64,000 nt of DNA, from assembly GCA_018052565.1 (NCBI GenBank), contig JAGPNC010000002.1, forward strand, positions 6,648-70,647, in the 5' to 3' direction. The notes beneath the pieces are model-generated. The model was not told the DNA's origin. It saw nothing but the letters and a program-made list of their open reading frames with translations, and did not search any database. The stretch is from Candidatus Shapirobacteria bacterium. Lineage in GTDB: Bacteria; Patescibacteriota; Microgenomatia; 0-14-0-10-38-17. How positions within the stretch are numbered: position 1 is the stretch's first letter; every line of letters begins with the position of its first letter. This document shows, piece after piece, positions 11,531 to 64,000 of the stretch. The position numbers were made by a program, and so were the translations under genes.

Positions 11531-11703
11531 TGTGACGGGGTAAATTATTCTAATTATTCTAATTAACCGAATTTCTAAATAAACCCCAAGCACCAAAGTT
11601 CCAAATAGATTTATTTTTTATTTTTATTTAAGTAATTTTGGGAGTTGGGATTTGGAATTTCTCTAGGTCAATTAGAACAATTAGAGCAATTAGAATAATT
11701 TTT
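11531..11703 (+). repeat. palindromic MITE-like element of about 170 bp, copy B
   Basis: Near-identical to copy C. It sits between the two ABC exporter genes. Confidence 0.8.
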
Positions 11704-11765
11704 AACTTTAAAGCGATAGATTTGTGGTGCTAAATTTTCAAATGCTGATTTTCTTATAGCAGCTT

Positions 11766-13517: not shown

Positions 13518-13585
13518 ATGGGTTCAAAGTGGTTGGCATAATTGGTCATCCCGATCCCGTCGCAAATAATATTAACAAATGGATA

Positions 13586-13742
13586 AATTATTCTAATTAT
13601 TCTAATTAACCGAATTTCTAAATAAATCCCAAGCACCAAAGTTCCAAATAGATTTATTTTTTATTTTTATTTAAGTAATTTTGGGAATTGGGATTTGTAA
13701 TTTCTTTAGGTCAATTAGAATAATTAGAGCAATTAAAATAAC
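13586..13742 (+). repeat. palindromic MITE-like element of about 170 bp, copy C
   Basis: aattattctaattattctaattaaccgaatttctaaataaatcccaagcaccaaagttccaaatagattt...ggtcaattagaataattagagcaattaaaataa. Confidence 0.8.
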
Positions 13743-13790
13743 TTTTATCTTTTTTGCGAGCAAGTTAGTTTTTGCTATACTATATTCAGC

Positions 13791-23229: not shown

Positions 23230-23350
23230 AAAGTCAAAAGTTAAAATGCAAAAGTCAAAATTTCAAGTTAAAAGTTAAAAGTTTTTTTTGTTTTACTTTT
23301 GAATTTTTACTTGTACTTTTAACTTTTGAATTTTAACTTTTGACTTTTCT
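23230..23350. repeat. AAAAGT/ACTTTT hexamer hairpin
   Basis: aaagtcaaaagttaaaatgcaaaagtcaaaatttcaagttaaaagttaaaagt, a short loop, then ttttgaatttttacttgtacttttaacttttgaattttaacttttgactttt. Confidence 0.8.
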
Positions 23351-27125: not shown

Positions 27126-27162
27126 TCCTGTGATTTTTTGCTGCCAGCAAATGTAAGCTTAT

Positions 27163-27287
27163 TGTGGCTGGGACATAAATGTTATTTTGAGCCCGCCTTG
27201 GCGGGGGGAGAATCCCCTTGTATGAGATTCTTCAGTCGCTTACGCTCCTTCAGAATGACAGAAAAAGAATTATGTCCCAGCCACACT
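27163..27287. repeat. MITE-like palindromic element with terminal inverted repeats GTGGCTGGGACATAA / TTATGTCCCAGCCAC
   Basis: Both inverted repeats can be read directly. The interior contains ggggagaatcccc and cagaatgacag. Related ends occur at 19425-19480, 41878-42062 and 54212-54330. Confidence 0.7.
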
Positions 27288-27477
27288 ATTATATATCATC
27301 AGCTTAGTTTAAAGATGGGTTATAATTAGAGTGGGCTAAATAAAAATTTTTAATTTTGAATTGTCATTTTGCATTTTGACTTTTGAATTTTGATTTTTTA
27401 ACTTTAAGACCTTAGAATTTTTACCGATTTTGAGTTAGATTTTTAGCAAAACAAAAAAATATTATTTAAATTAAGTT

Positions 27478-30267
27478 ATGCTTTCTTTTCTTAAAAACAT
27501 TTTTGATGTTCAGGCGGCGGAGATTAAGCGCTTTTCCAAACTAGTGGAGAAAATTAATTTACAAGAAGAGGCGGTTAAGAAATTAAGCGACAAGGCGCTG
27601 GCGGCTAAGACGAAAGAGTTTACTTCTCGTCTGGAAAAAGAGCCGTTGGAATCTTTATTGACGGAGGCTTTTGCGGTGGTGCGCGAGGCATCGCGGCGAA
27701 CGATTGGCTTGCGTCATTTTGATGTTCAGCTGGTGGCGGCGGCGGCTCTTTTTGAAGGCAAAATTGCCGAGCAGAAAACCGGCGAGGGAAAAACTTTATC
27801 AGCCACGCCGGCGCTTTACCTTCGGGCGCTGGCAGGTAAGGGAGCGCATTTGGTAACCGTTAATGATTATTTGGCGCGGCGTGATGCGGGCTGGATGGGG
27901 CCAATATTCCATTTTTTGGGATTTTCGGTGGGCTGTTTAGTTCACGATCAGGCTTTTTTATTTGATCCTAATTTTTCTCAAGAAGCTGATGACCAGCGTT
28001 TGTCCCATTTGCGGCCGGTTTCAAGAAAAGAGGCTTATCAAGCGGATATTACTTATGGGACGAACAACGAGTTTGGCTTTGATTATCTTCGCGATAATTT
28101 AGTTTTCAATCTGCCCGATAAATCGCAGCGGGGTCATTATTTTGCGGTGGTAGACGAAGTTGACTTTGCCTTAATTGACGAGGCGAGAACCCCTTTGATT
28201 ATTTCTTCTCCTGAGCTTGAAGCGACCGATAAATATTATCAGTTTGCCCGGTTGGCCCGGGAGCTTAATAATGGGATTGATTATAAGGTTGATGAGGAAG
28301 CCAAGAATGTGCTTTTGACTGATCACGGCATTTCGAAGGTGGAAAAACGCCTCGGGGTGGAGAATCTTTATGAAAAAGATTTTGAAAGCATCCACCATTT
28401 AGAAAACGCCCTCAAGGCTAAGGAACTTTTTCGTCTTAACCGCGATTATGTAATTAAAGATGGCGAAGCGGTGATTGTGGATGAATTTACCGGCCGGTTA
28501 ATGTTTGGCAGGCGCTGGTCGGCGGGTTTGCATCAGGCGGTGGAGGCAAAAGAAGGGGTGAAAATCCAGCAGGAGTCAAAAACCTTAGCGACGATTTCTT
28601 TTCAGAATTACTTTCGTCTTTATGAAGTTCTGTCGGGGATGACAGGAACGGCCTATACCTCTCGAGAAGAGTTTAAGAAAATTTACGGCTTGGATACGCT
28701 GGTTATTCCTACTTATAAACCGATTAGAAGAATTGACCACCCTGACGCCATTTTTAAAACGCAACGGGCCAAATACACGGCGGTGGCTAACAAAGTGGAA
28801 GAGCTTCATAAAAAAGGCCAGCCGGTTTTGGTGGGGACAACTTCGATTGAGAAAAATGAGATCGTTTCAAGGCTTTTGGCCCATAAGGGTATTCCCCATC
28901 AGGTTTTAAATGCCAAAAACCATGAGAAGGAAGCGGGTGTGATTTCCCAGGCTGGGAAAAAGGGGGCGGTGACGGTGGCGACCAATATGGCCGGGAGGGG
29001 AGTAGATATTGTTTTGGGTGGAGAACCACCAAAAGAAAGTCAAAAGTCCCCGCCCAAGGCGGGTCCGCCTCTGGCGGAAAAAGTCCCCGCCCAAGGCGGG
29101 TCCGCCTCTGGCGGAAAAAGTTCAAAGCCAGAAAGACAGAATAGTAAAGAGGAGCAGCTAAGATGGCAGAAGGAGCATGAGGAAGTAATAAATCTGGGAG
29201 GGCTGTTTGTTTTAGGAACAGAGCGGCATGAAGCGAGGCGGATTGATAATCAACTACGCGGCCGTGCGGGTCGTTTGGGCGATCCGGGCGCTTCCCAGTT
29301 TTTTATTGCCCTAGACGATGATATGATGCGCGTTTTTGGTGGGGAGCAAATTGCCGGCTTGATGACCCGCTTTAATTTCCCCGATGACGTGCCGATTGAA
29401 AACAGCTTAATTAGCCGCTCTTTGGATCAGATTCAAGCCAAGGTAGAAAGCGTAAATTTTGATGCCCGTCGTTATCTGGTTGAATATGATGATGTTATCA
29501 ATAAGCAGCGGGAAGTTATTTATAAAATTAGGGATAAAGTTTTGCTTTGGGAGGAAGAAAAGAATTTTGCTGCTCTTAAAAAAGCAGTTTTGGAAAAAGT
29601 CAATCAAGAGCTGGAGGGGTTGGTTGATCGTTGTACTGATTATGCTAACGGCGAGAAAGGAAGGGTTGACGAGGGCGCCTTGTTGAATGAAGTTTTGGAA
29701 ATTATCCCCCTTCAGGATAAAGCAAGCTTAGGGAAAGAAATTCATCAGCAAGAGGCGGAGACGGTTAAGAAAATCTTGCATAATTTAGCCGAAAATTCCT
29801 GGCAAATGCTTGAGGAAAAAATAGGCAAGGATAATCTTCTTACCCTGGGCAAGTGGGTTTATCTTTCAACGATTGATCGTTTTTGGACAGAGCATCTTGA
29901 TAATATGGAGGCTTTGCGGGAAGGGATTTCGCTACGAGCTTATGGTCAGGAAAATCCTTTGGCGGCTTACAAAAAAGAGGCCTTTGAGGCTTTTGAAAAA
30001 TTAATGGCGGAGGTTGACTATCAGGTGAGCCGGCGGATTTTGCGCCTTGAGGTGAGAGAGCCTTCTTTTGTTTCCCCTTTCTCGGGTTTGGTTACTAACG
30101 CCGATCATTCTGACGGAATGGGGCTGGTTTCTGCTAATTTTGTGGGGCCATCAAGAAATGTTTCCCAGCCATTAGCGCCACGCCCTAAAACCCCAGGCCG
30201 TAATGATCTTTGCCCCTGCGGCAGCGGAAAAAAGTATAAGAAATGCTGTTATCCGAAATACGGGTAA
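27478..30267 (+). CDS. secA: preprotein translocase ATPase SecA carrying an in-frame repeat-element insertion
   Basis: DEAD-like motor motifs (KTGEGKTL, VTVNDYLARRD, DEVDFALIDEARTPLIIS, TNMAGRGVDIVLGG, GTERHEARRIDNQLRGRAGRLGDPG). The C-terminal Zn finger is CPCGSGKKYKKCC. Confidence 0.9.
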   Translation: MLSFLKNIFDVQAAEIKRFSKLVEKINLQEEAVKKLSDKALAAKTKEFTSRLEKEPLESLLTEAFAVVREASRRTIGLRHFDVQLVAAAALFEGKIAEQKTGEGKTLSATPALYLRALAGKGAHLVTVNDYLARRDAGWMGPIFHFLGFSVGCLVHDQAFLFDPNFSQEADDQRLSHLRPVSRKEAYQADITYGTNNEFGFDYLRDNLVFNLPDKSQRGHYFAVVDEVDFALIDEARTPLIISSPELEATDKYYQFARLARELNNGIDYKVDEEAKNVLLTDHGISKVEKRLGVENLYEKDFESIHHLENALKAKELFRLNRDYVIKDGEAVIVDEFTGRLMFGRRWSAGLHQAVEAKEGVKIQQESKTLATISFQNYFRLYEVLSGMTGTAYTSREEFKKIYGLDTLVIPTYKPIRRIDHPDAIFKTQRAKYTAVANKVEELHKKGQPVLVGTTSIEKNEIVSRLLAHKGIPHQVLNAKNHEKEAGVISQAGKKGAVTVATNMAGRGVDIVLGGEPPKESQKSPPKAGPPLAEKVPAQGGSASGGKSSKPERQNSKEEQLRWQKEHEEVINLGGLFVLGTERHEARRIDNQLRGRAGRLGDPGASQFFIALDDDMMRVFGGEQIAGLMTRFNFPDDVPIENSLISRSLDQIQAKVESVNFDARRYLVEYDDVINKQREVIYKIRDKVLLWEEEKNFAALKKAVLEKVNQELEGLVDRCTDYANGEKGRVDEGALLNEVLEIIPLQDKASLGKEIHQQEAETVKKILHNLAENSWQMLEEKIGKDNLLTLGKWVYLSTIDRFWTEHLDNMEALREGISLRAYGQENPLAAYKKEAFEAFEKLMAEVDYQVSRRILRLEVREPSFVSPFSGLVTNADHSDGMGLVSANFVGPSRNVSQPLAPRPKTPGRNDLCPCGSGKKYKKCCYPKYG
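29032..29125 (+). repeat. intergenic-type repeat (AAAAGT plus two 37-nt GC-core units) embedded in frame in secA
   Basis: aaagaaagtcaaaag, then tccccgcccaaggcgggtccgcctctggcggaaaaag twice (29047-29083 and 29084-29120). Because 37 is not a multiple of 3, the two copies are read in different frames, giving SPPKAGPPLAEK and VPAQGGSASGGK, between DIVLGG and GGLFVLGTERHE. Confidence 0.85.
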
Positions 30268-30269
30268 AA

Positions 30270-30385
30270 AAAATTCAAAATTCAAAAGTAAAAATGCAAA
30301 ATTACAAGTCAAAAGTTAAAAGTTTTTTTTGCTTCACTTTTTAATTTTAACTTGCACTTTTGACTTTTGAATTTTGAATTATAAC
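30270..30385. repeat. AAAAGT/ACTTTT hexamer hairpin
   Basis: aaaattcaaaattcaaaagtaaaaatgcaaaattacaagtcaaaagttaaaagt, a T-rich loop, then ctttttaattttaacttgcacttttgacttttgaattttgaatt. Confidence 0.8.
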
Positions 30386-30456
30386 TTTAGCCTTTACACT
30401 TTAAATTTTTTATAGCAGTATGAGGACTTTTTCGTTTATAATCTTTTTAACTATTT

Positions 30457-33699: not shown

Positions 33700-33830
33700 A
33701 ATGGAAGAAAAATTAAAAGTCAAAAGTTAAAAGTTAAAAGTCCAAGTAAAAATTCAAAAGTGAAGCAAAAAAAACTTTTGACTTTTAACTTGCAATTTTG
33801 AATTTTGCATTTTGACTTTTGAATTTATAA
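33700..33830. repeat. AAAAGT/ACTTTT hexamer hairpin
   Basis: aaagtcaaaagttaaaagttaaaagtccaagtaaaaattcaaaagtgaagc, aaaaaaa, then acttttgacttttaacttgcaattttgaattttgcattttgacttttgaattt. The arms are about 80% complementary. Confidence 0.8.
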
Positions 33831-33862
33831 CTTATTGTTTATTCAATTAAATGTTTTTAAAA

Positions 33863-40494: not shown

Positions 40495-40732
40495 AAAGTT
40501 AAAAGTTAAAAGTTAAAAGTTAAAATTACAAGTCAAAATTCAAAAGTAACAGGGCAAAGAACTTTTAACCCGCCTATCGGTGGGCGGGCTTTTGACTTGT
40601 CTACTAGCCATGCACCATACGGTGAGGGGCTAGCTGGCGGGAAACAAAAATCTTAAAACGTTTTTGAATTTTGATTTAGGCTTTGATCTTTGCTTTTTGC
40701 GTTTTGCGCTGAGATTTAATTCTTGATTTTTG
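40495..40732. repeat. composite repeat: AAAAGT run, GC-core hairpin, ccccgcacc-type mini-palindrome and tttgatct arm
   Basis: aaagttaaaagttaaaagttaaaagttaaaattacaagtcaaaattcaaaagt ... cccgcctatcggtgggcggg ... gcaccatacggtga ... tttgaattttgatttaggctttgatctttgctttttgcgttttgc. Confidence 0.75.
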
Positions 40733-41047: not shown

Positions 41048-41776
41048 ATGAAAGGAGTTATTTTGGCAGGAGGTTTAGGCACACGTCTTTACCCTCTCAC
41101 TTGGGCGACAAACAAGCATCTTTTGCCCATTTTTGATAAACCAATGATTTTTTACCCGATTAACACTTTGGTTAAGGCGGGAATTAAAGAAATCTTGGTG
41201 GTTACTGGTGGGCCGCATGCCGGCCATTTTCTTCAGGTTTTAAAAAATGGTAAAGAGCTAGGCCTAAAGCATTTAGAATATGCTTACCAGGAAGGAGAAG
41301 GTGGTATTGCCGCGGCGTTATCCTTGGCCGAAGACTTTGCCGATGGGGGAGCGTTGGCGGTGGTTTTAGGCGATAACACCACCGATGCTGACATTTCTTC
41401 AGCGGTGAAAAATTTTCGGGGAGGAGCGACAGTTTTTTTGAAAAAAGTGCCTGATCCCCAGCGTTTTGGTGTGCCTGTTTTTGACCAAAAAAACTCAAAA
41501 AAGATTATCAAGATTGAAGAAAAACCGGCAAAGCCGCAGTCAAATTTTGCCGTTACCGGTCTCTATCTTTATGATAACCAAGTTTTTAAAATTATTAAAA
41601 CTCTCAAGCCATCGGCGCGGGGAGAGTTAGAGATAACCGATGTTAACAATTATTATCTTAAAGAGGGAAAGCTTACTTGGTTTAACCTTAGCGGTTTTTG
41701 GTCCGACGCGGGCACTTTCGAAAGCCTTTTTCGGGCTAATAAATATTGGGCGGAGAAGAAGATGAAGCAACCATAA
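41048..41776 (+). CDS. rmlA: sugar-1-phosphate nucleotidyltransferase, short-form glucose-1-phosphate thymidylyltransferase-like
   Basis: MKGVILAGGLGTRLYPLT...K.LLPI.DKPMI.YPI matches the RmlA/GlmU N-terminal signature. It sits in a locus with rmlBCD. Confidence 0.7.
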   Translation: MKGVILAGGLGTRLYPLTWATNKHLLPIFDKPMIFYPINTLVKAGIKEILVVTGGPHAGHFLQVLKNGKELGLKHLEYAYQEGEGGIAAALSLAEDFADGGALAVVLGDNTTDADISSAVKNFRGGATVFLKKVPDPQRFGVPVFDQKNSKKIIKIEEKPAKPQSNFAVTGLYLYDNQVFKIIKTLKPSARGELEITDVNNYYLKEGKLTWFNLSGFWSDAGTFESLFRANKYWAEKKMKQP

Positions 41777-41795
41777 TAACAGTTTTGAGGAGGTA

Positions 41796-42178
41796 AATTA
41801 TTTTAATTATTCTAATTGACCTAATTATTCTAAAGAAACCCCAAACGCCAAACCCCAAATTTTTAAATGATTTTTTTGCGACTGAGACATAATTCGTCAT
41901 TCTGACCCTGAGCAAAGCCCTGTACCAAACGGTGCGGGGCGAAGCAAGGGGAAGAATCCCCTCTGGAAATTATGTTTTAAAGGAGATCCTTCCCCCACTG
42001 TTGGCGGGGTCAGGATGACGCAGTGGACCCTGCTGCTCATTTATGTCACAGGGTCTTGTCGGCAGAAAGAATCATATTTTAGCCACGTTTTTATTTATAT
42101 TAATTTTGAGAATTGTGGCTTTGGGTGTTTTTTAGGTCAATTAGAATAATTAGAGCAATTAAGATAATTTTTTGATTT
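41796..42178. repeat. 170-bp MITE-like element interrupted by a nested GACATAA-TIR element
   Basis: Left part 41796-41876 (aattattttaattattctaattgacctaattattctaaagaaaccccaaacgccaaaccccaaat). Right part 42063-42178 (...ttttaggtcaattagaataattagagcaattaagataatttt). The nested insert 41878-42062 carries ctgagacataattcgtcattctgaccc ... ggggtcaggatgacgcag ... tttatgtcacag. Confidence 0.7.
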
Positions 42179-42261
42179 GATAAGGAGATAGTGTGGACAA
42201 ATTCAGGATGATACCAAACTAAATTTAGAAATAGTACAAAGATTGTGATTGTTATATTTAA

Positions 42262-43665
42262 TTAAGTTCCCTTAATAACGGCTAAAGGCTTAAGCCGGGC
42301 AACTTTAGAGGTGAGCCCTTCTTTAACTAAAACATCAACTACTTCTTCGATGTCTTTATAGGCTCCGGGGGCTTCATCGGCAATTTTATGAAAGGGGAGA
42401 TTATAAATTATTTTCCCCATTGATTTTTCAAACTGGGGAAGACTGATATTTCTTTGGGCGGCGCGGCGGGACATCAGCCGGCCAGCGCCATGGTTAACGG
42501 AGTGGAAGGTATCCTTATTTTTAGAAGTGCCTACCACTACATACGAAGCGGTTCCCATGCTGCCGGGAATTAGGGCGGGGTGGCCGGTTTTAACAAAAGA
42601 GGGGGGATTTTGGGGGTGGTTAGGGGGAAGGGCGCGGGTGGCTCCTTTGCGATGGACTAAAACTTTTTGGCCAAGGTGATTTTCCCATTTGGCAATATTA
42701 TGAGCGACATCATAAAGAAGATAGAGGGGATCATTGTTGCCAAAGGTTTCCCGCCAAGCTTGGCGGACAAAATGGGTGATAATTTGCCGGTTTACAAAGG
42801 CAAAATTAACACAGGCGGCCATGGCGCCAAAATAACGTTCTCCTTCTGGGGTGGTGACAGGAAGAGCGGCTAGGCCTTGGTTAGGGATTGTTAGTTGGTA
42901 TTTTTCTTTTTTCCGCCAAAGAATTTGGGTGTAATCAAGGCAAGTTTGGTGGCCTAAGGCGCGGGAGCCGGTATGAATCATGACGGCGATTTGGTTAGGG
43001 AAAAGGCCGAATGCTTGGGCGATTTGCTTATTAAAAATCCGATCTACCTTTTGGATTTCGATAAAATGATTACCAGAGCCGAGAGTGCCCAGTTCGTTTT
43101 TAGCGCGGCTAATAGCTTTAGTGGAAAGGCAGGAAAATTCTGCTTCTTCCATGCGACCGTTTTCCTCGGTTCTTTCCAAATCTTCTCTCTGCGCCAAGCC
43201 CTTTTCTACCATATAAAAAAGTCCTTTCCGGCAAACTTTTTCTAGAGAAAGGCCAAGATGCCCTTTCTGCTGTCCTCCCAAGCCTAAGGGGACAAATTGG
43301 CTGATCTTTTCGATTAATTGCCGTAATAGAGAAGGGGTGAAAACTTCTTTGTCGTAAACTTGCTGGGAAAGAAGAAGGCGCACGCCGCAATTAATATCCA
43401 TTCCCACAGCGCCAGCAGAAACTAATCCTTGCGTTGCCATCACGCCACCAATTGGCAGGCCAAAACCTTCGTGGATATCCGGCATTCCCAATACTGGTGA
43501 AATTACTTTTGGTAAACAGGAGGCGGCAATTAATTGTTCCAAGCTCCTATCTTCCTGGATTGGCTTTAAGAGTTTTTCGGAGGCGTAGATGACGACTTCG
43601 GCCTGCATTAACCCGCTTTTTTTAATCCGCCATTTTTGAGGGGAGAGAGACTCAAGGCTAAACAT
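42262..43665 (-). CDS. rtcB: RNA-splicing ligase RtcB
   Basis: Metal and GMP-histidine motifs: DIHEGFGLPIGGV, HTGSRALGHQ, HNIAKWENH, NHGAGR. Confidence 0.9.
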   Translation of the reverse strand: MFSLESLSPQKWRIKKSGLMQAEVVIYASEKLLKPIQEDRSLEQLIAASCLPKVISPVLGMPDIHEGFGLPIGGVMATQGLVSAGAVGMDINCGVRLLLSQQVYDKEVFTPSLLRQLIEKISQFVPLGLGGQQKGHLGLSLEKVCRKGLFYMVEKGLAQREDLERTEENGRMEEAEFSCLSTKAISRAKNELGTLGSGNHFIEIQKVDRIFNKQIAQAFGLFPNQIAVMIHTGSRALGHQTCLDYTQILWRKKEKYQLTIPNQGLAALPVTTPEGERYFGAMAACVNFAFVNRQIITHFVRQAWRETFGNNDPLYLLYDVAHNIAKWENHLGQKVLVHRKGATRALPPNHPQNPPSFVKTGHPALIPGSMGTASYVVVGTSKNKDTFHSVNHGAGRLMSRRAAQRNISLPQFEKSMGKIIYNLPFHKIADEAPGAYKDIEEVVDVLVKEGLTSKVARLKPLAVIKGT

Positions 43666-46951: not shown

Positions 46952-47982
46952 GTGAATATTTTCTCGGCCAAAAGAATAACGCCTCCTGTCACTAAGGGAA
47001 TAAAGAGATTATCGTTGATCCGTTTATTATTAATTTTTGGTTCGCTGAATTCTAAAATGGTGGTAGTAAGGATGGCGGGGGCCAGAAATTTTAAGGGCGC
47101 ATAGGGGAGAGAGACGGTGGTGGTGGCAATGGCGCTGGCAAAGGCAGCGCTCCAGCGTTTCTTTAAAGAATGACCGTTATTAAGGTAATAACCGGCGATA
47201 GCATTAACCGAATCGCCTACCGCTAAACTTAAAATTGCCACGGTGGCAACGGGAAGAGGAAAAACAAGAGTAGCGATTAAACTGCTCCAGGTAAAAAGTA
47301 GTGGTCCGGCTCCTAAAAACTTAGGTAATGGTTTCCTTTCAAAGTAAATAATTAAATTGTTCAAGGGCACAAAAGGTAAAAGGTGGTTTAACAAGAGAAG
47401 GATAGTTAAGAGAAAAGTAAAGAGAGTAAAGTAGCGGGGGGTTAAAATTTGGTAATTAATCGCAAGCGCGAGAGACAAGCCGTAAAAAAGATGAACGATT
47501 TTTCTTCTTAAGTTGATGTTTTTGCCCCAGTCAGAAGCGCTTTTGGTTTGAGAGAGAGAATAAAATGACCAGAAGACAGCGGTGGCAAAAAAGAAGCCGC
47601 CGGCAACATCGGTAACGTGATGTAGTCCTAGGGCAACGCGGGAATAAGCGACTAGAAAAGCTCCCAAGAAGCCTAAGGGGGAAAATTTTGGCCAAAGAAC
47701 GATGATTGTCCAAGCAATAACGGTCGCTACTGCCGCATGGAGGGAGGGGAAAGCAAAATCGGTGGGGATGTTGGCAGTTACTCCCAGTATGGTTGGGTTT
47801 TCAACAAATGGTCGGCTTATTTGGGTTAAATCTTTAACCACTTTTCCCCCGAATAAAGTAAAAATCAAGGCAGGGGCAAAAATGGGGAGGAAAAACTCTT
47901 TTTTAAATTTAAGGATAAAAAAAACAAACAAACCAACTAATGCTGGTAAAAGCCATGGTGAATTAAGGATGGCAAGGCTCAT
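46948..47982 (-). CDS. fusion membrane protein: PAP2 phosphatase domain plus CdsA/DolK-like (CTP-dependent polyprenol kinase family) domain
   Basis: N-terminal PAP2 motifs KDLTQISRPF, PSLHAAV and SRVALGLHHVTDVAGG. The C-terminal half has additional transmembrane segments and LAVGDSVNAIAGYY, a GDxxAxxxG motif of the dolichol/polyprenol kinase-CdsA superfamily. Confidence 0.5.
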   Translation of the reverse strand: MSLAILNSPWLLPALVGLFVFFILKFKKEFFLPIFAPALIFTLFGGKVVKDLTQISRPFVENPTILGVTANIPTDFAFPSLHAAVATVIAWTIIVLWPKFSPLGFLGAFLVAYSRVALGLHHVTDVAGGFFFATAVFWSFYSLSQTKSASDWGKNINLRRKIVHLFYGLSLALAINYQILTPRYFTLFTFLLTILLLLNHLLPFVPLNNLIIYFERKPLPKFLGAGPLLFTWSSLIATLVFPLPVATVAILSLAVGDSVNAIAGYYLNNGHSLKKRWSAAFASAIATTTVSLPYAPLKFLAPAILTTTILEFSEPKINNKRINDNLFIPLVTGGVILLAEKIFT

Positions 47983-48821
47983 TTTTGGGAAATTTTTTTT
48001 GTTTTGGAAGCAGAAAGAAATTTCTCTTTTGATCCTATGAGAAAGTTATTAAGGGTAAACAGCAAAACGCCAAAAGAAAAAATTAATTCCGTGGGCTCCT
48101 GATCGCGAGCATCAATAAAAGCGTCAAAGAAGTTAAGATCTTTATGGAGCCAAAACTGAAGCCAAAGAAGAGCATCCTTGCCCCAAAAATCGCAAGAAGG
48201 AAGAATCATGTCCCGTATAAAAGTAGCCACAGGCTCATCCAGATACCGAACCCAAAGGTAATAGAAAAAAAGGGGAAGAAAATAAAGAGAAAGATTTTTA
48301 GCGGGAAAAAAATTTTTTATTTCAGGAATTCTCTTCTCAAACTTTTGGGCAATTTTCCACCCAAAAGTGCCCCAAAGACCGATTAGGATATAAATTTGCG
48401 GTAATTTACCTTGAATAAAATTTAAATTATGGAAAGTAATTTCTCCTTGGGTATTTTTCGAGGCGATATTTTCCGATGTTTCTATCCCCAAAATTCTTTG
48501 TCCCCACGAAATTTCTTCGCCGGCAGTAAAAAATAATCCCAGAAAGAGGATTGAGAAAAAAACTCCTTTCCCAAATTTTTTCTTTTTAAGGAAATGGTAG
48601 GAAACGAGGAAAGAAAAAATGCTAGCAAGGAGAAAAAAGATAAATTGTAACCATTCAACAGGGCTATCTTCAGCAACAAAGAGATGGTAACGATAGTCGT
48701 TTTTTATCTTAAAAACGGCGAAGAAAATAACCATAAAAATGGGGAAAAGAAAGACAGCTGGGCTTTCTTCAATAAATTTTTTTAATTTCATTTTTTGGGA
48801 ATAATATGCCTCTCTTGCCAC
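47979..48821 (-). CDS. polytopic membrane protein, unknown function
   Basis: About 7 transmembrane segments. Overlaps trmD by 34 nt and the PAP2 fusion by 4 nt. Confidence 0.45.
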   Translation of the reverse strand: MAREAYYSQKMKLKKFIEESPAVFLFPIFMVIFFAVFKIKNDYRYHLFVAEDSPVEWLQFIFFLLASIFSFLVSYHFLKKKKFGKGVFFSILFLGLFFTAGEEISWGQRILGIETSENIASKNTQGEITFHNLNFIQGKLPQIYILIGLWGTFGWKIAQKFEKRIPEIKNFFPAKNLSLYFLPLFFYYLWVRYLDEPVATFIRDMILPSCDFWGKDALLWLQFWLHKDLNFFDAFIDARDQEPTELIFSFGVLLFTLNNFLIGSKEKFLSASKTKKISQK

Positions 48822-51776: not shown

Positions 51777-52181
51777 ATGGAAAGTTGTATTTTTTGCCAA
51801 ATTGCCAAAAGGAAAGCGCCGGCAGAAATTATTTATGAAGAGCCAGGGGTAATTTGTTTTTTGCCCAAAGAAATTGAAGTTTATGGGCATACCTTGGTAG
51901 TGCCTAAACAACATTATGCTGACTTATACGATATACCAGCAAGTGTGCTTGCGGATTTGGTAAGAGTGGTGCAAAAGCTAACAAAAGAATATCGGCAGAG
52001 AATAGGAGCAACCGGGATGCACTTGATGCATGCTAGCGGTCGGGATGGACAGCAATCGGTTTTTCATTTTCACTTCCACCTTCTTCCCCGCTTTAAAAAC
52101 GACGGTCTTAACACTTGGCCTAATTTGCCAAAGATAGGAATAAACAGGGGCGACCTTTACGCTAAATTACGAATAGGCTAG
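51777..52181 (+). CDS. HIT family hydrolase, paralog 2
   Basis: CIFCQIAKRKAPAE...GHTLVVPKQHY...HFHFHLLP. Confidence 0.85.
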   Translation: MESCIFCQIAKRKAPAEIIYEEPGVICFLPKEIEVYGHTLVVPKQHYADLYDIPASVLADLVRVVQKLTKEYRQRIGATGMHLMHASGRDGQQSVFHFHFHLLPRFKNDGLNTWPNLPKIGINRGDLYAKLRIG

Positions 52182-52187
52182 TTTCTA

Positions 52188-52748
52188 ATGGATTATTTGA
52201 CCCTTCGTCAAGACAATATTGAAATCAAGCATGTTGTCGGCGACGAAGTTTGGGCTAAAGAAACCCTTATTTTTTTACAAGAGGTGCTTGTTTTCCTTTC
52301 CCACTATTTTGGTCTAAAGAAACCATTTTCTTTGATAAGGGTAGTTTTGGCTCCTGGCAGAAGCCAATATGACCAGCTGGTCGCAAATTTTTTAGGAGTT
52401 AAGGCAAAGATACCCTCTGCCCCCCAAAGAATTGCTCAAATACAAAAAACAAAGATGGTTTTTCTTTCACCCGTCTCTTATGAAGACGACTCTTCTTATA
52501 AATTTAAGCCCGACGAATATAGGCGGCTTGTCTTTCATGAACTGGTTCATGTTTTTGGGGAGTATTTATCTGCCGACATGGAAGCGGTTCCTTGCTGGTG
52601 GGGAGAGGGTTTGGCTGTTTATTTATCAGGGCAAGGAGAACATGAAGACGAATTTCGGCAGCCTGTTTTAAGAGGAATAAGAGAAAGGAATATCCCCAAT
52701 TTTCAAAGTATTCAGGCAAGCAGAAAACAAAGCTATCAGTGGGGGTGA
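52188..52748 (+). CDS. hypothetical protein with HExxH motif (possible small zinc metallopeptidase-like)
   Basis: VFHELVHVF with a downstream GEGLAVY glutamate. No other assignable motif. Confidence 0.4.
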   Translation: MDYLTLRQDNIEIKHVVGDEVWAKETLIFLQEVLVFLSHYFGLKKPFSLIRVVLAPGRSQYDQLVANFLGVKAKIPSAPQRIAQIQKTKMVFLSPVSYEDDSSYKFKPDEYRRLVFHELVHVFGEYLSADMEAVPCWWGEGLAVYLSGQGEHEDEFRQPVLRGIRERNIPNFQSIQASRKQSYQWG

Positions 52749-52897
52749 ACAATCGTTAATTTTATTGAAAAAACTTATGGTAAAAGGATGATTCTTAAGA
52801 TCGCAAATAAAGTGAATGGCGGGAATATTTTGGGAATTATTGGCGAGAATTCAGAGGATTTTGAAAAGAAATGGAAAAACATGCTATATTCTAAACA

Positions 52898-54193
52898 ATG
52901 AAAATTGCAGTTGTCGGCGCCGGTTACGTTGGGTTAACGTGGGCGGCCGTGTTGGCTTCATTGAGCCATAAGGTCCTTTTGGTAGAAAACAACCCGAAGA
53001 AATTGGCCAAGCTTAAGAAGGGCCAGCCGCCGTTTTTTGAACCCGGCCTCGAGCCACTTTTAAAAAAAGAAATTAAGAGTAAACGACTTTCTTTTTCTTC
53101 ATCAATCAAAGATCTTCAGGAAAAACCGGAGGTTGTTTTTATTTGTGTGGGCACTCCTTCTCGCCAAGACGGTTCAATTGACCTTTCTTATGTTTTTGCC
53201 GTGGCCAAGGAATTAGGGAAAAATCTTTGGCCTGGCCAGACCACGGTAGTTCTTAAGAGTACCGTTTTGCCGGGGACAACTAAAAAGGTTGAAGAAATAA
53301 TTAGCCAAAATAAAAATAAAAAAGCCACTTTTAGCTTAGCTTTTTGTCCGGAATTTTTAAGAGAAGGCAAGGCGGTTGAAGACAGCTTTCGCCCCAACCG
53401 AGTTATTATTGGCAGCAATGATAAGAGAGCAATTGCTATTCTTAAAAAAATTCACGCTCCTTTTGGAGCGCCAATTTTAGCGGTAAAAACGGAAAGCGCC
53501 GAAGTTACTAAATATGCGGCTAATGCCTATTTGGCCTTACGGATTGTTTTTGCTAATCAAATTGCTGATTTAGCCGAGAGGGTAGGGGCGGAGGTAGAAG
53601 AGGTGATTGCAGGCATCGGACTTGACCCGCGGATTGGCAGCGCTTATTGGTATCCCGGTTTAGGCTATGGTGGCTCTTGCTTTCCCAAGGATGTAGCCGC
53701 CTTAGCTTCTTTTAGTACTAAAAAGGGGCTAAAACAGTCGCTTTTTTCTTTTATGGATCATTACAACCAAAGCCGCCCCGAGAAAAAGTTAGCGGAGATT
53801 GAAGAAAAATGGGGTCAAGCGCTTGGAAAAAGAGTGGCGGTTTGGGGGTTAGCCTGTAAGCAGGGAACTGATGACGTGCGGGGTTCGGCGGCGCTTTTGA
53901 TGGCCGATAAATTATCAAAAAAAGGAGCGGCGGTTTTTGCTTTTGACGCCCTGGCAGAAGAGAATGCCCAAAGGGCATGCCCCAACGTTTGTTATTCTCC
54001 CGACCCCTATTCGGTAGTGAAGAACGTAGATTGGCTTTTGGTTTTAAGCGACGATCCTCTTTTTGCGAAGGCAAACTTTGCGAGAGTGAAGAAATTGATG
54101 AGGGGAAGAAAAATTTTTGACGCCCGTAATATTTTGCCTAAAGAAGAACTTAAAAAAATGGGCTTTGACTACTTGGGTGTCGGCAGAATTTAA
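52898..54193 (+). CDS. ugd: UDP-glucose 6-dehydrogenase family (UDP-sugar dehydrogenase)
   Basis: MKIAVVGAGYVGL NAD fold and catalytic GGSCFPKD. Confidence 0.85.
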   Translation: MKIAVVGAGYVGLTWAAVLASLSHKVLLVENNPKKLAKLKKGQPPFFEPGLEPLLKKEIKSKRLSFSSSIKDLQEKPEVVFICVGTPSRQDGSIDLSYVFAVAKELGKNLWPGQTTVVLKSTVLPGTTKKVEEIISQNKNKKATFSLAFCPEFLREGKAVEDSFRPNRVIIGSNDKRAIAILKKIHAPFGAPILAVKTESAEVTKYAANAYLALRIVFANQIADLAERVGAEVEEVIAGIGLDPRIGSAYWYPGLGYGGSCFPKDVAALASFSTKKGLKQSLFSFMDHYNQSRPEKKLAEIEEKWGQALGKRVAVWGLACKQGTDDVRGSAALLMADKLSKKGAAVFAFDALAEENAQRACPNVCYSPDPYSVVKNVDWLLVLSDDPLFAKANFARVKKLMRGRKIFDARNILPKEELKKMGFDYLGVGRI

Positions 54194-54211
54194 TTTTGTA
54201 TTTTGCTTGTA

Positions 54212-54560
54212 GCTGAGACATAATTCTTGATGCTGTTGTAAATTTGCCCGCCTGCCGGCGAGGCCCCGCACCGTATGGTGCAGGACGAGGCAGGATTCAG
54301 CGTCATCCTATATCGGACACATCAAAAATTCCAAATCCCAAATAACAAATCACAAACAAATTCCAATAACCAAATTCCAAAGGATGACACTTTCGCCAGC
54401 CCCGTAGCAAATATTATTTACGGCGGGGCCAGGGTGACGGCTTGCTTTCGCTGCGTCATTCCGGGCTTGACCCGGAATCTGCCTTGAGGCGGAAAGAAGG
54501 GCAGATCCTGGCCCTGATTTTTATCAGGGCAGGCTTTTCGTTAGTTGGGATGACGAGTTG
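54212..54560. repeat. cluster of GACATAA-TIR / gtcatcc and ccccgcacc-type palindromic repeats
   Basis: gctgagacataattc ... gccccgcaccgtatggtgcagg ... cagcgtcatcctata ... gcgtcattccgggcttgacccggaatc ... ggcagatcctggccctgatttttatcagggcaggc. It fills about 350 bp of non-coding DNA between ugd and the GT2-GtrA gene. Confidence 0.55.
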
Positions 54561-54613
54561 CGCCTCACTTATTTTGCTTGTATTTATTAAATAATTATTG
54601 TATTTTAAGGTTA

Positions 54614-56972: not shown

Positions 56973-57004
56973 AATTCTTTTTTTAGTATAACAGAATTGT
57001 TAAT

Positions 57005-57125
57005 TTAAAAGTTAAAATTCAAAATGCAAAATTCAAAATTGCAAGTCAAAAGTTAAAAGTTTTTGCTTTAATTTTGAATTTTTAATTGCAATTTTGATTT
57101 TTGACTTTTAACTTTTGAATTTAAA
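57005..57125. repeat. AAAAGT/ACTTTT hexamer hairpin
   Basis: aaaagttaaaattcaaaatgcaaaattcaaaattgcaagtcaaaagttaaaagt ... ttttgaatttttaattgcaattttgatttttgacttttaacttttgaattt. Confidence 0.8.
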
Positions 57126-58791: not shown

Positions 58792-59559
58792 ATGGCTGAA
58801 AACAAAGGCTCTCTTTTTCTCTCGGTAGTCATTCCCTGCTACAACGAAGAAGAAAATTTGAAACGGGGAGTTTTAAAAGAGGTGGCTGACTACCTTGGGA
58901 AACAGAAATATTCTTGGGAAGTAATCATCTCCGATGATGGCTCTAGCGATAAGAGCAAGGAGCTGGCGCGAAATTTTGTCAAAAATCAGCCCGGCTTCCT
59001 TTTGCTTGAAAATCGGCATGGAGGAAAACCTTATGCGGTTTGGCAGGGGATCAAAAAGGCCCGTGGAGAAATTGTTTTGTTTACCGATATGGACCAGTCA
59101 ACTCCGATTAGGGAAATAGAAAAGCTTTTGCCTTATTTTAAAAAGGGTTATGAGGTGGTTATCGGTTCAAGAGGCTGGAAACGAAGTGGCGCTCCACTTT
59201 ACCGCCAATTAGCGGCTTTTATTTTTTTGCAAGTGCGACGGCTTCTTCTCTTGCCGGAAATTGTTGATACCCAATGCGGTTTCAAGGCTTTTAAAACAAA
59301 AGTGGCTCAAGAACTTTTCCCTAAACTTTCGGTTTTGGAAAACTGGCAAGAAGCTTCCGGCTGGCGGGTAACCGCCTTTGATGTGGAGCTTTTGTTTTTA
59401 GCCAAAAAAAAGGGTTATAAGATTAAAGAGGTGCCGGTTTTATGGCAAGACGAAGATGTGGCTTCAGGCAAAAATAAAAGCTTTGTTAAGGAGTCGCGAC
59501 AGATGCTGGAGCAAATTATTAACGTTAGAAAAAACGAGCGGAAAGGGAAATACCAATAA
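58792..59559 (+). CDS. family 2 glycosyltransferase (Dpm1-like)
   Basis: LSVVIPCYNEEENL...IISDDGSSDKS...FTDMDQSTP. Confidence 0.8.
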   Translation: MAENKGSLFLSVVIPCYNEEENLKRGVLKEVADYLGKQKYSWEVIISDDGSSDKSKELARNFVKNQPGFLLLENRHGGKPYAVWQGIKKARGEIVLFTDMDQSTPIREIEKLLPYFKKGYEVVIGSRGWKRSGAPLYRQLAAFIFLQVRRLLLLPEIVDTQCGFKAFKTKVAQELFPKLSVLENWQEASGWRVTAFDVELLFLAKKKGYKIKEVPVLWQDEDVASGKNKSFVKESRQMLEQIINVRKNERKGKYQ

Positions 59560-59672
59560 AAGTTAAAAGTCAAAAGTTAAAAGTCAAAATTGCAAGTAAA
59601 AATTCAAAAGTAAAGCGAAATTTAACTTTTAAATTGTAATTTTAACTTTTGACTTTTAACTTTTGAATTTAC
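59560..59672. repeat. AAAAGT/ACTTTT hexamer hairpin
   Basis: aaagttaaaagtcaaaagttaaaagtcaaaattgcaagtaaaaattcaaaagtaaagcgaaatttaacttttaaattgtaattttaacttttgacttttaacttttgaattt. Confidence 0.8.
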
Positions 59673-59677
59673 TTTTT

Positions 59678-60817
59678 ATGTTTTGTGCCTTTTCTATTTT
59701 AACTCTTCTTTCTTATCTGGCTCTTTTTTTTCTTTCCTATTGTTGGGTTGACCCGAATCTTACTTTGACTTCCTGGGAGCCGCTGAATCAAATTTTGGAA
59801 CAGTTTAAGCATTTTGGTTATACAAATCCCTCTCTTTCTTCCCGTCTTTACTTATTAATAATTACCATCTTATTTTTGGAGCAAATTTATTTGCTCTTTT
59901 CTCATCTTCTTTCCAAGGCAGAAAGAAAAAAATTGCTGCTTTTGGCGGCGGCGGTTATCTTTTTGGCTGCTCTTTCTTATCCTTTTCTATCCCATGATTT
60001 ATTCAGCTATTTATTTGACGCTAAAATAATTTGGCATTATCAAAAAAATCCCTATCTCTTTTCCCCAAACCAATTTGCTTCTGATCCTTGGTTAAGATTT
60101 ACCCACTGGACTCATCGCACCACTCCTTACGGCCCTGTTTGGTTAGCCTATAGTTTACTGCCGGCGATTTTTTCTTTTGGCCATTTCGCCCTCAACTTTT
60201 ACGGCCTGAAATTGCTCAATGGTTTAGTTTTTTTTGCCGCTGGCTGGTGTTTATTAAAAATTAACCAAGACGATCGGCGAGTTTTTGCTTATTGGTTTTT
60301 TAACCCCTTTTTATTAATTGAGCTGGTGGTTAATAGCCATAATGATTTGTTAATGATTGCTTTGTTTTTCGCCAGTTTGTTTTTTTACCACGAGAGAAAA
60401 AAGCTTGCCGCGGCGGGAGTATTTTTACTATCAGTAGCGACAAAATTTATTACCATCCTTTCTTGGCCCTTGGTTTTTTTTAAAAATCGTCATTTTTGGG
60501 CGACTGGTTTCCTTTTTTTCTTGCTTTTGGGTTTTTCTTGGCAGATTACCCGTTTTCAGCCCTGGTATTTTAGCTGGGCTTTCTTGGCGCTTCCTCTTCT
60601 TGGGCTGACTAATTTTTCTTGGGCAACTGTCTTTGCCGGCCAGTTTCTTCTGCTGGTTTTAAAATATTACCCCTTTTTGGCAACTGGCTCTTGGGAAAAA
60701 ACGGCTCACTTTCAATTTTTTCAAGCTTTCTTTATTTTTTTAGCCTTTTTCTTTTTAGCCCAGTTGCCAGCTCTACAGAAATTTATTTCCAAACGCTTTC
60801 GATCCCGGCCTAATTAG
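59678..60817 (+). CDS. polytopic membrane protein (possible GT87/DUF2029-like glycosyltransferase)
   Basis: About 380 aa with roughly 10 transmembrane segments. Confidence 0.4.
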   Translation: MFCAFSILTLLSYLALFFLSYCWVDPNLTLTSWEPLNQILEQFKHFGYTNPSLSSRLYLLIITILFLEQIYLLFSHLLSKAERKKLLLLAAAVIFLAALSYPFLSHDLFSYLFDAKIIWHYQKNPYLFSPNQFASDPWLRFTHWTHRTTPYGPVWLAYSLLPAIFSFGHFALNFYGLKLLNGLVFFAAGWCLLKINQDDRRVFAYWFFNPFLLIELVVNSHNDLLMIALFFASLFFYHERKKLAAAGVFLLSVATKFITILSWPLVFFKNRHFWATGFLFFLLLGFSWQITRFQPWYFSWAFLALPLLGLTNFSWATVFAGQFLLLVLKYYPFLATGSWEKTAHFQFFQAFFIFLAFFFLAQLPALQKFISKRFRSRPN

Positions 60818-62344: not shown

Positions 62345-64000
62345 AATTGCAAAATACCAGAATTTTCTTTGGCTAGGGCTGTTTTTGACGGCCAACGTGG
62401 TTCTTTTGTTGCCTGTTTTAGGCAGGGACCAGTTTTTCCCTTCTCATGACGATACCTGGATTATCCGCCTCCAGCAGTTCGACCGGGCGATTAAGCTGGA
62501 ACAGATCCCGCCGCGCTTGGCTCCTGACATGGCTTTTGGCTTTGGCTATCCGCTTTTTGTTTACTATTCGCCTCTTTTTACTTTTCTTTCCTGGCTTTTT
62601 TTAAAAATCGTTGGTTCTTACTCTTTGGCGGTAGTTTTAACGATTGTTTTGGTCAATTTTTTGGGAACTTGGGGGATGTTTCTTTTGGCAAAGAAATTCT
62701 TTGGTCTTGCGGGAGGGCTTGTTGCCGCGTTGGCCTTCACTTTTTTGCCCTACCGGGCATTGGATGTTTATGTGCGTGGCGCCTTCGCAGAACTAACCGC
62801 TTTCTCTCTTTTGCCTTTTTTCTTTTACTTTTTCTTTGGTCTTTTCTCCGGCGAAAAAAGAAAGAAAAACGCCCTGGGGCTTGTTTTAACCACCGTTGGC
62901 CTTGTTCTTTCCCATAACTTGATGCTCATTATTTTAGCTTATCTTTCCCTGCCGCTCTTAATTTTAGCTTTTTGGCAGTTATTTCGCCAACGCCTTCCCT
63001 GGCGCTGGCCGATCTTAGTTATCTTTCTTGTTCTCTTCCTAAGCGCTTTTTATTGGTTGCCAATGATAGTCGGTTTGGATAATGTTCAGGCAATTAATCA
63101 GGCCCAAAAAACTTCTTTTGCCGATCATTTTGTTTATCTTGGCCAGCTTTGGAATTGGCCGTGGGGTTTTGGCGGTTCCGACATCGGTTTAGCTGACGGG
63201 ATGTCTTTTAAAATTGGTAAAGTTCATTTGCTCTTAGCCTTAGGGGGATTATTAGCTTTATTCTTAGGCAAAAAATGGCCAAAAGAAATTATCTGTTTGC
63301 TAATTATAGGTTTTTTATCGTTTTTCTTTTGTTTATCCTCTTCTTCATTTTTTTGGAAAAATCTCCCTTATTTAGCGGTGGTTCAATTTCCGTGGCGTTT
63401 CTTGGGACCCTTAAGCCTGGTAGTTTCTTTTTTCGCCGGAGGAATTATTCTTCTACCAGAAGCAATTCATTTTTTGAAATTTCCCGCCATCCTTAAAAAA
63501 TTTGGGATGGGATTAATTATTTTGGTAAGCATCAGCGGCTTAATATATTTTAATTTAAAATATTTTGTCCCGCGATTTAAGATTTATCAGGCCGATGAAG
63601 TTTATTTAACTCCGGAAAGGATCGCTCAGGCAGCAAAGGTGATCCCGGAATATTTGCCCCGTTGGGCAAGCTCCTGGCCAGAGGAAAAGCCGGTACAAGC
63701 CGTAGAGGTAGAGAAGGGGAAGGTGAAAATATCTCTTGACTCCCCTTATAAAATTATTTTTAAAGTTGAAGAAGAGAAGCCGGAATCGATCGTTGTTAAC
63801 CGCTTTTATTTTCCCGGCTGGCAAGCCAAAAGCGGTTCGGGAGAAAAAATAAGCCTTGGGCCGGAAGAAGGGAGAGGCAGAATTGTTTTCGCTTCTGAGG
63901 TTGAAAAAGATGAGGAGATATCAGTTTTTTTTGCCCCCACTTTAGTAGAAAAAATAAGCATAGGCTTATCGGTTTTGGGGTTAGTTCTTTTGCTGTTGGT
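62328..64000 (+). CDS. large polytopic membrane protein (candidate GT-C/YfhO-like), 3' end outside window
   Basis: ATG at 62328 in frame 0 overlaps the previous gene by 17 nt. I checked the frame as open at several points through 64000 (…RDQFFPSHDDTWIIRLQQFDRAIKLEQIPPRL… / …RFYFPGWQAKSGSGEKISLGPEEGRGRIVFASE…). It is missing from the ORF track only because it has no stop inside the window. Confidence 0.55.
   Translation, partial: MKWWSKIAKYQNFLWLGLFLTANVVLLLPVLGRDQFFPSHDDTWIIRLQQFDRAIKLEQIPPRLAPDMAFGFGYPLFVYYSPLFTFLSWLFLKIVGSYSLAVVLTIVLVNFLGTWGMFLLAKKFFGLAGGLVAALAFTFLPYRALDVYVRGAFAELTAFSLLPFFFYFFFGLFSGEKRKKNALGLVLTTVGLVLSHNLMLIILAYLSLPLLILAFWQLFRQRLPWRWPILVIFLVLFLSAFYWLPMIVGLDNVQAINQAQKTSFADHFVYLGQLWNWPWGFGGSDIGLADGMSFKIGKVHLLLALGGLLALFLGKKWPKEIICLLIIGFLSFFFCLSSSSFFWKNLPYLAVVQFPWRFLGPLSLVVSFFAGGIILLPEAIHFLKFPAILKKFGMGLIILVSISGLIYFNLKYFVPRFKIYQADEVYLTPERIAQAAKVIPEYLPRWASSWPEEKPVQAVEVEKGKVKISLDSPYKIIFKVEEEKPESIVVNRFYFPGWQAKSGSGEKISLGPEEGRGRIVFASEVEKDEEISVFFAPTLVEKISIGLSVLGLVLLLL

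Follow-up and report, generated by a model that had tools for sequence, protein, structure and literature searches.

Repetitive extragenic palindromic sequences (REPs) of the CGTC type consist of a CGTC or TGTC tag, an 8- to 9-bp stem that opens with A-T pairs, a loop of 4 to 5 nt and a short tail (PMC3733652). The sections of that survey devoted to these families place REPs no farther than 20 bp from where convergent open reading frames (ORFs) have their 3′ ends, describe REP termini that give stop codons and REPs that lie inside ORFs, report no dedicated transposase for the CGTC superfamily and leave its mobilization open. They also describe REP dimers inside long palindromes (GTAG-15 of A. 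variabilis and CGTC-1 of H. neapolitanus) and intergenic mosaics of Neisseria in which CGTC units are mixed with other repeats. In the REPIN/RAYT system, where RAYT stands for REP-associated tyrosine transposase, two inverted REPs form one hairpin unit of ~100 nt that has no target-site duplication (PMC3116915; PMC3733652). Here we describe a locus on a 64-kb stretch of DNA from a Candidatus Shapirobacteria bacterium (“the window”), in which a GC-rich element with GACATAA-type ends and two CGTC half-sites lies inside an AT-rich palindromic repeat of ~170 bp, between the convergent genes for an rfbA-like nucleotidyltransferase and RtcB. With a probability of about 0.6, we read this locus as the product of serial insertion of REP/REPIN-like non-autonomous hairpin elements at the 3′-3′ junction of the two genes.

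Bacterial MITEs (miniature inverted-repeat transposable elements), such as Correia/NEMIS, are 100 to 200 bp long, carry terminal inverted repeats, are non-coding, multi-copy and intergenic, and can nest. The inner element of our locus is similar, but differs in that it has no target-site duplication and in that no parent insertion sequence was found for it. The bacterial interspersed mosaic elements of E. coli and the small dispersed repeats of Nostocales are modular mosaics of very short, nesting palindromic units; their sequences and hosts are unrelated to those described here, and the comparison is by analogy only. A literature search on MITEs and palindromic repeats in Patescibacteria (the candidate phyla radiation, CPR), and on the end sequence, returned nothing relevant. 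The locus fits the known pattern of small mobile repeats of the REP/MITE type. Its new aspects are the group to which the host belongs, the outer end of the GACATAA type, the outer family of 170 bp and a clear polarity, which intact paralogues and empty orthologous sites together provide.

Anatomy of the RtcB/rfbA-like junction

The rfbA-like gene (41048-41776, plus strand) and the RtcB gene (42262-43665, minus strand) point toward each other across a 485-nt spacer. The window sequence is contained in contig JAHZTS010000437.1 of the metagenome-assembled genome GCA_020049655.1, and its proteins are named Candidatus Shapirobacteria in the sources. Repeats of the host genome were counted over the window. 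The spacer sequence is the same in three independent assemblies (NCBI, JGI 3300007465 and ENA ERZ27275284) and is therefore no assembly artefact.

RtcB relatives (84-87% protein identity) were located on contigs and compared at this junction. In eight of these contigs (L004 and L006-L012), which represent two lineages, the gene for RtcB and that for a 245-aa nucleotidyltransferase share 14 nt in a tail-to-tail overlap. The distance between the anchors TATTGGGC and CCCTTAATAAC is 35 nt in the empty sites (L004, L006), as against 525 nt in the window and 281 nt on contig L005. Thus, the window has gained ~490 nt, and the whole spacer is a derived, lineage-specific composite insertion that reaches from the rfbA-like gene to RtcB (41771-42261, without assigned strand), as marked by the anchor distances and by the gene overlap in relatives. 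The rfbA-like product is 242 aa long in the window and 245 aa in the empty-site relatives; by our reading, it ends in KQP rather than SKAKLP, and RtcB ends in KGT rather than KGV.

Strains of one species also differ at this site. Although contig L005 shares 98.4% identity with the empty L004 over 3.76 kb, a distinct REP mosaic of 246 nt occupies the same position in L005 and ends in ...CGTCAGGATGACGAATTATGTCTCCGCCAC, a GACATAA end. In the RtcB identity matrix, the L004 group, L006 and the window lie at ~81-82% from one another; therefore, the site was filled at least twice independently. The rfbA-like flank of the L005 mosaic has only 92.7% identity to L004, which suggests a recombination tract brought in with the L005 insertion.

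The outer component is an AT-rich imperfect palindrome of ~170 bp, of which the window holds three intact copies (~9500-9680, inverted; 11540-11710; 13583-13750). The region 41773-42172 is a diverged copy of this family that is cut at its apex by the inner insert. When 41878-42086 is removed, the rejoined sequence is 84-86% identical to the 11.5- and 13.5-kb copies in an alignment that runs across the junction, and the junction maps between TTTTTT and ATTTTT at 11619/11620 of the intact copy, within its predicted apical loop. An earlier reading made from the DNA alone (the sequence-only reading) had proposed this homology and placed the two halves at 41796-41876 and 42063-42178. The alignment bears out that both belong to the family and moves their borders: the left part starts at 41773 and the right half at 42087. 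The insert is accordingly 209 nt long instead of 185 nt, the earlier right border of 42063 lying 24 nt too early.

On the left, the outer unit begins with an extension module (ATAATAACAGTTTTGAGGAGGTA, 41773-41795, plus strand), which is homologous to AATAATATTTGTGACGGGGTA preceding the intact copies at 11522 and 13565 and provides the TAA stop codon of the rfbA-like gene. In general form, the outer unit is extended on one side by the module GTYATCCYGA-CCCGTCG..AATAATATT..GACGGG-ATA. The left half of the palindrome proper (41795-41877, plus strand) was placed by alignment to the intact copies and pairs with 42120-42170, and the right half (42087-42172, plus strand) was placed by a direct-repeat match and by the same alignment. 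The remaining tail, from 42173 to the RtcB stop codon at 42261 (no strand assigned), is unique to the insertion: it holds a remnant of TCAGGATGAT at 42202-42214, has no repeat match other than itself and is missing from the empty sites.

The three intact outer copies border two ABC-transporter genes whose mutual identity is only 33%, while the repeats are near-identical over their ~170-nt core by alignment. The copies are therefore recent arrivals or homogenized copies and not relics of gene duplication, and tandem gene duplication was ruled out as their source on this contrast. The outer family was found at two independent locations in the window, its three intact copies clustering around the one pair of ABC-transporter genes, and it has no match in any other locus that we fetched.

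The inner GC-rich insert (41878-42086, plus strand) occupies the apical loop of the outer palindrome, as both the restored alignment and the predicted fold indicate. Its left GACATAA-type terminus, GCGACTGAGACATAA (41878-41892, plus strand), compares with GTGGCTGGGACATAA at 27163 and with ACTATAGCTGGGACATAA on contig L036 of another Shapirobacteria species; its right terminus, TTATGTCACAG (42041-42051, minus strand), was recognized as an inverted repeat and by motif count. The bounding sequences CTGAGACATAA (41882-41892) and TTATGTCACAG are complementary at 10 of 11 positions, and the inner arms CGTCATTCTGACCC and GGGTCAGGATGACG at 13 of 14. Between the arms lie a small hairpin, CCCTGTACC-AAAC-GGTGCGGGG (41918-41939, plus strand), with related copies at 9466-9493, 40610-40640 and 54263-54284 and in a TatD-like ORF (8997-9051), and an innermost palindrome, GGGGAAGAATCCCCT ... 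AGGAGATCCTTCCCC (41948-41995, plus strand), with 15-nt arms that are 87% complementary and a module, GGGGAGAATCCCC, that recurs in the GACATAA element at 27 kb. A further small hairpin, GCAGTGGACCCTGCTGC (42020-42036, plus strand), is seen in the predicted fold between the second REP arm and the right terminus; it is the sole terminator-like match, at chance level. The last 35 nt, ending in AGCCAC (42052-42086, no strand assigned), match neither family clearly. They gave no alignment to the 170-bp family; their reverse complement, GTGGCTAAAATATGATTCTTTCTGCCGAC, looks by eye like GTGGCTGGGACATAATTCTTTTTCTGTCATTC at 27287, with a local alignment of 10 nt, so that this piece may tentatively be taken as a second, degenerate GACATAA-type end.

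When treated as single-stranded DNA, the entire region is predicted to fold into one nested hairpin with a minimum free energy of -66.2 kcal/mol (z = -7.0). The inner insert contains no meaningful ORF, and promoter and terminator scans of it stayed at chance level. At Rfam gathering thresholds, the window yielded one tRNA and no family at 41.7-42.3 kb. The exact pattern GACATAATTCGTCATTCYGA (GACATAATTCGTCATYCYGA for viral contigs) had no match in the genome, metagenome and viral contig collections searched.

CGTC half-sites and GACATAA ends

The canonical CGTC REP to which the insert relates is CGTCATTCTGAC-GAAA-GTCAGAAT, found in contigs L013 and L006 and in at least 120 stretches from many phyla. 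As a compact unit, it reads CGTC-ATTCTGAC-GAAA-GTCAGAAT-C in both contigs, with the variants CGTC-ATCCTGAC-GAAAA-TCAGGAT in L006 and CGTC-ATTCTGAAC-TTGA-TTCAGAAT in L013. The window itself holds two canonical units (6903-6930 and 54454-54481). In the insert, two head-to-head half-sites (CGTCATTCTGAC and CGTCATCCTGAC) pair with each other across 98 nt. The first (41895-41908, plus strand) reads CGTC + ATTCTGAC + CC and over its initial 12 nt is identical to the 5′ half of the canonical REP. The second (42007-42020, minus strand) reads CGTCATCCTGACCC on its own strand and is the same as the REP 5′ halves at position 6427 of L006 and 3837 of L005. The CGTC tag is thus present on the plus strand at 41895-41898 and again at 42020-42017 of the minus strand; the stem has the length of 8 to 9 bp and the two opening A-T pairs of the published consensus, ATTCTGAC pairing with GTCAGGAT with one mismatch, and its halves are the same as those of the canonical REPs in L006 and L013. 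The 4- to 5-nt loop and the unpaired tail (consensus CCA) are absent: the arms stand 98 nt apart and are followed by the mirrored tag. Judged by their sequence, the insert arms are the tagged 5′ halves of two CGTC REPs set head to head. The motif CGTCATYCTGA occurs 8 times in the 64 kb, versus 0.7 expected.

An exact scan with the 23-mer GTCATTCTGACGAAAGTCAGAAT gave at least 120 matching stretches, and the matches listed come from more than 15 phyla, with Shapirobacteria, other Patescibacteria, Bacteroidota, Ignavibacteria, Proteobacteria and Melainabacteria represented. The context of these matches is (T/C)GTC...C(T/C), that is, both tag and tail are conserved. Such cross-phylum identity of the canonical CGTC/TGTC REP 23-mer (L014-L133) is striking.

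By our reading, the GACATAA motif borders the CGTC tag as an outward extension, with no gap at 19435, at 41882 and in L005; in the 27-kb copy, an 8-nt spacer separates GACATAA from the tag at the right end, and the arm is degenerate at the left end. CTGRGACATAA occurs 7 times in the window, versus 1.2 expected, and no shuffle reached 7; the complete 27-kb copy contributes to these sites, as do the single ends at 19435 and 54213. At 27162-27288, the window has a complete element whose inverted end, TGTGGCTGGGACATAA, is perfect over 16 bp. Another, with a perfect 18-bp end (ACTATAGCTGGGACATAA) and inner CGTCATTCCTGAA/TTCAGAATGAC arms, stands at 3741-3870 of L036 (identical to L139; Shapirobacteria strain CG09, PEZH01000015). 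The two elements measure 93 nt (window) and 94 nt (L036) between the GACATAA ends and span 115 and 118 nt, respectively, from GCTGGG to CCCAGC, with CGTC/TGTC arms inside both. Conservation of the ends extends to the L004/L005 species and to strain CG09, two Shapirobacteria lineages besides that of the window.

A gapped metagenome scan for the ends gave 17 loci, 10 of them distinct. Nine are apparently Bacillota-like, a call based on a Spo0A-like ORF on one contig and a GC content of 32-38%; the elements on these contigs (L134-L150) are 124 nt long and have (AAA)GAGGCTGGGACATAA as their inverted ends and a terminator-like hairpin inside. A plasmid BLAST search with the Bacillota-type element found a related element of Ligilactobacillus, on L. 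salivarius pMP118 (L151, 1505-1640), and a solitary end follows cadA on S. aureus plasmids (L152, 2500-2520); no transposase was among the matches to the element or its end. On these comparisons, we regard the GACATAA end as a conserved feature of a real family. The sequence-only reading had proposed such a family from the 27-kb copy and the single ends. The shared ends hold at all of these places, but a long body in common with the 27-kb copy does not: by BLAST, the insert shares just its ends and modules of 13 to 29 nt with the copies at 19.4, 27.2 and 54.2 kb.

With the CGTC families in the survey's sections cited above (PMC3733652; including Neisseria dRS3 and Rickettsia RPE-4/RPE-6), the locus shares the CGTC/TGTC tag with its AT-initiated stem of 8 to 9 bp, head-to-head pairing, location at the 3′ ends of convergent ORFs, stop codon supply, copies inside ORFs and the lack of a known dedicated transposase. 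It differs from them in that the arms do not enclose a short loop and come without their own 3′ arms and tails, in the extra conserved outer end ...GCTGRGACATAATT, which does not appear in the families published there, and in its host, since Candidatus Shapirobacteria belong to a group outside that survey. With the A. variabilis and H. neapolitanus dimers and the Neisseria mosaics, it shares a GC-rich REP pair central in a longer palindrome and the interleaving of repeat families. No REP-free target palindromes were found in A. variabilis and H. neapolitanus, whereas three intact outer copies exist here, and the polarity of insertion can therefore be inferred.

Proposed serial insertion and its alternatives

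Under serial insertion, an AT-rich palindromic element of ~170-215 bp would have entered the RtcB/rfbA-like overlap, parting the two genes and rewriting both C-termini. A GC-rich element with G(T/C)GNCTGRGACATAA ends and two head-to-head CGTC half-sites would then have landed in its apical loop, and still smaller hairpin modules would have filled the space between the REP arms. The inner element would behave like a REP dimer or a REPIN, or like a MITE that makes no target duplication, and an enzyme encoded elsewhere than in the window would move it in trans. The substrate of that enzyme would probably be hairpin DNA in extruded or single-stranded form, and this would account for the insertion into a loop as well as for the missing target-site duplications. 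Nesting and past mobility had already been proposed by the sequence-only reading and stand: the outer repeat is broken in its apical loop, the insert ends occur independently of it, the spacer is missing in eight relatives and a strain pair differs at the site. Taken together, the empty sites, the filled site in a near-identical strain and the intact paralogue argue that CGTC-REP-like elements move, which bears on the mobilization that the survey's CGTC sections leave open (PMC3733652).

Target-site duplications and a mobilizing enzyme were looked for. No duplication was found at 41878/42086 or in the 11 complete GACATAA elements, and the T-runs beside the insert (41877 and 42087) are already present in the intact outer copies. 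A Pfam scan of the unannotated window ORFs found no transposase, and the 160 loci fetched contain no element of insertion-sequence size with GACATAA-type ends. The locus resembles a REPIN in that its two inverted half-sites are predicted to fold into one hairpin, and related Shapirobacteria have RAYT-like single-locus Y1 genes. It differs in that its tag is CGTC instead of GTAG, no cognate RAYT with the same REP accompanies it, the window has no Y1 gene and the Y1 genes of relatives are flanked by CACACCTCTAAGGTGTG.

The Y1_Tnp family is very large in Microgenomates. In L004, positions 4638-5315 encode a Y1_Tnp protein (E = 7.8e-12) with inverted ACACCTTAGAGGTGG on both sides; in another Shapirobacteria lineage, a Y1 gene stands at one fixed mraZ-def locus in 8 of 8 cases among the matches listed, from eight sample records (L153-L160), and these genes are always flanked by CACACCTCTAAGGTGTG-type repeats. 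The single-locus, repeat-flanked Y1 genes of the relatives are RAYT-like. The CACACCTCTAAGGTGTG-type repeat is unrelated to the GACATAA and CGTC sequences and has 0 matches in the window, and on present evidence we rejected a Y1/RAYT protein as the cognate enzyme for this reason. At the trmD-PAP2 position syntenic with the L004 Y1 gene, the window has a 280-aa ORF (47979-48821) with no Pfam match.

Several observations weigh against serial insertion. The L005 mosaic may have come by homologous recombination and not by fresh insertion, its rfbA-like side (L005 4010-4999 versus L004 11412-12401) being 92.7% identical and its RtcB side 98.4%. None of the relatives has the outer element without the inner insert at this locus; with no such orthologous site, the inner insertion step is deduced from the paralogous copies. 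The 64 kb yield two complete and two or three single-ended GACATAA copies, so that copy number and consensus rest on few cases, and the two complete ones (27 and 41.9 kb) share ends and short modules without a long alignable body. Compact tag-stem-loop CGTC hairpins are no commoner in the window than in shuffles (3 versus 4.9), and given this we claim REP identity just for specific copies and half-site sequences. No mobilizing enzyme was found in the window ORFs scanned or the loci fetched. Landing in a loop is also not general, as 37-nt GC-rich modules elsewhere in the window lie in the arms of AAAAGT palindromes and not at their apex.

The same evidence can be set against three other accounts. 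The inner element could be a classical MITE: an insertion sequence bounded by inverted G(A/T)GGCTGGGACATAA ends would have been reduced by deletion to the present form, and a DDE-type transposase whose gene lies in another part of the genome would move it. Terminal inverted repeats are indeed present (10 of 11 positions here, perfect over 16 to 18 bp in the complete elements at 27 kb and in L036), the 11 complete elements keep a narrow size of 115 to 124 nt between GCTGGG and CCCAGC (122 to 140 nt with extended inverted repeats), and a 12- to 15-nt end is common to about 9 distinct Bacillota-like loci and recurs alone beside cadA on the S. aureus plasmids; conservation of the end across such loci suggests that a protein recognizes it. 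We nevertheless hold this account to be rather unlikely, as 0 of the 11 complete elements, and likewise the 41878/42086 borders, have a target-site duplication, the window ORFs scanned include no transposase, the loci fetched include no insertion-sequence-size element with these ends, and the internal arms are REP half-sites and not remnants of an insertion sequence. The same points speak against the transposon that the sequence-only reading had in mind, with a target-site duplication and a transposase gene bearing GGCTGGGACATAA ends.

Transposition might also be dispensed with altogether, if scattered palindromic modules built the mosaics by recombination, gene conversion or template switching with one another and homologous recombination spread these between strains. 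Intergenic regions of the window and its relatives combine one set of short modules into shuffled mosaics of varying order, one-ended or truncated copies are common (19435, 54213, L005), and the 92.7% flank of the L005 mosaic resembles an imported tract. However, insertion into unique sequence without prior homology, as in overlapping gene ends or in the SecA reading frame, needs an insertion step, and complete elements of different species agree in size and keep long inverted ends that are perfect, which makes this account decidedly unlikely. The polarity could finally be reversed, with the 41.8-kb copy as the ancestral full-length form and the three 170-bp copies as its derivatives by internal deletion or precise excision. 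The 41.8-kb copy is the most diverged (84-86%), the others being near-identical, and could be the oldest; but its core has inverted ends of its own and stands alone at 27162-27288 and in another species, which lacks the 170-bp family, and the palindromic center is uninterrupted in the intact copies, so that we consider reversal very improbable.

A broader form of the serial-insertion reading would hold that CGTC-REP-like arms, GACATAA ends and GC palindromes of 16 to 37 nt make up an active, self-nesting system of hairpin mini-elements in these small-genome Shapirobacteria. Such a system would use loops or short AT motifs as sites of insertion without target duplication, would enter even the reading frames of essential genes such as secA, would be driven by a novel enzyme or host process and could be the missing route of mobilization for CGTC REPs, whose 23-nt core is identical in more than 15 phyla among the matches listed. 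This remains speculative, and we think it unlikely.

Further repeat modules in the window

Other genes of the window also contain such modules, demonstrably inserted in the case of SecA. The SecA gene (27478-30267) carries 75 extra nt at 29042-29126, in the form of two tandem 37-nt GC-rich units, CCGCCCAAGGCGGGTCCGCCTCTGGCGGAAAAAGT, which stay in frame and add 25 residues, KSPPKAGPPLAEKVPAQGGSASGGK, that are missing from five relatives. The empty site in L013 lies between GAAATTC and AAAGTTC, and the filled site is flanked by AAAGTC and AAAGTT, possibly reflecting a short duplication or targeting of an AAAGT motif. The TatD-like ORF (8502-9365) contains a 60-nt double hairpin at 8994-9053 that is related to the CCCTGTACC..GGTGCGGGG module and is read in frame as GEAPHRLVQGKVPYRMVRGE, directly ahead of an HCF motif. 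The effects on genes include overlapping convergent genes set 490 nt apart, with both C-termini replaced, as well as in-frame modules in SecA and in the TatD-like protein. A CPR bacterium with a small genome here tolerates proliferating palindromic repeats and is reshaped by them. Such repeats explain contig breaks and spurious small ORFs and could serve as strain markers.

The mosaic at 54 kb that begins with a GACATAA end (54212-54569, GC-rich) is enclosed by a 13-bp direct repeat, TATTTTGCTTGTA (54199-54211 and 54570-54582). The pair resembles a duplication, but the locus also has three genes (51777-54193) beyond those of L004. The window has two regions of 1.1 and 1.7 kb (680-1789 and 62345-64000) without a listed ORF of at least 90 aa or an Rfam match; ORFs that run off the window end were not listed, so that 62345-64000 may be coding.

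Long AT-rich palindromes built of 7-nt periodic AAAAGTY/RACTTTT units are present in at least 14 intergenic regions of the window (for example, 6950-7070, 8310-8440, 23230-23350, 30270-30400, 33710-33840, 57000-57125 and 59550-59680), and similar elements lie at orthologous places in L004. A 16-nt palindrome, TCCGCCAGCTGGCGGA, is found within AT-rich repeats as ...TTTTGA(palindrome)TTGA... in L004 (reverse complement, 9749-10000 and 12400-12717) and in L013 (5018-5346), a context consistent with a 4-nt TTGA duplication. The same palindrome also occupies the loop of a REP-like stem at 7842-7955 of L004.

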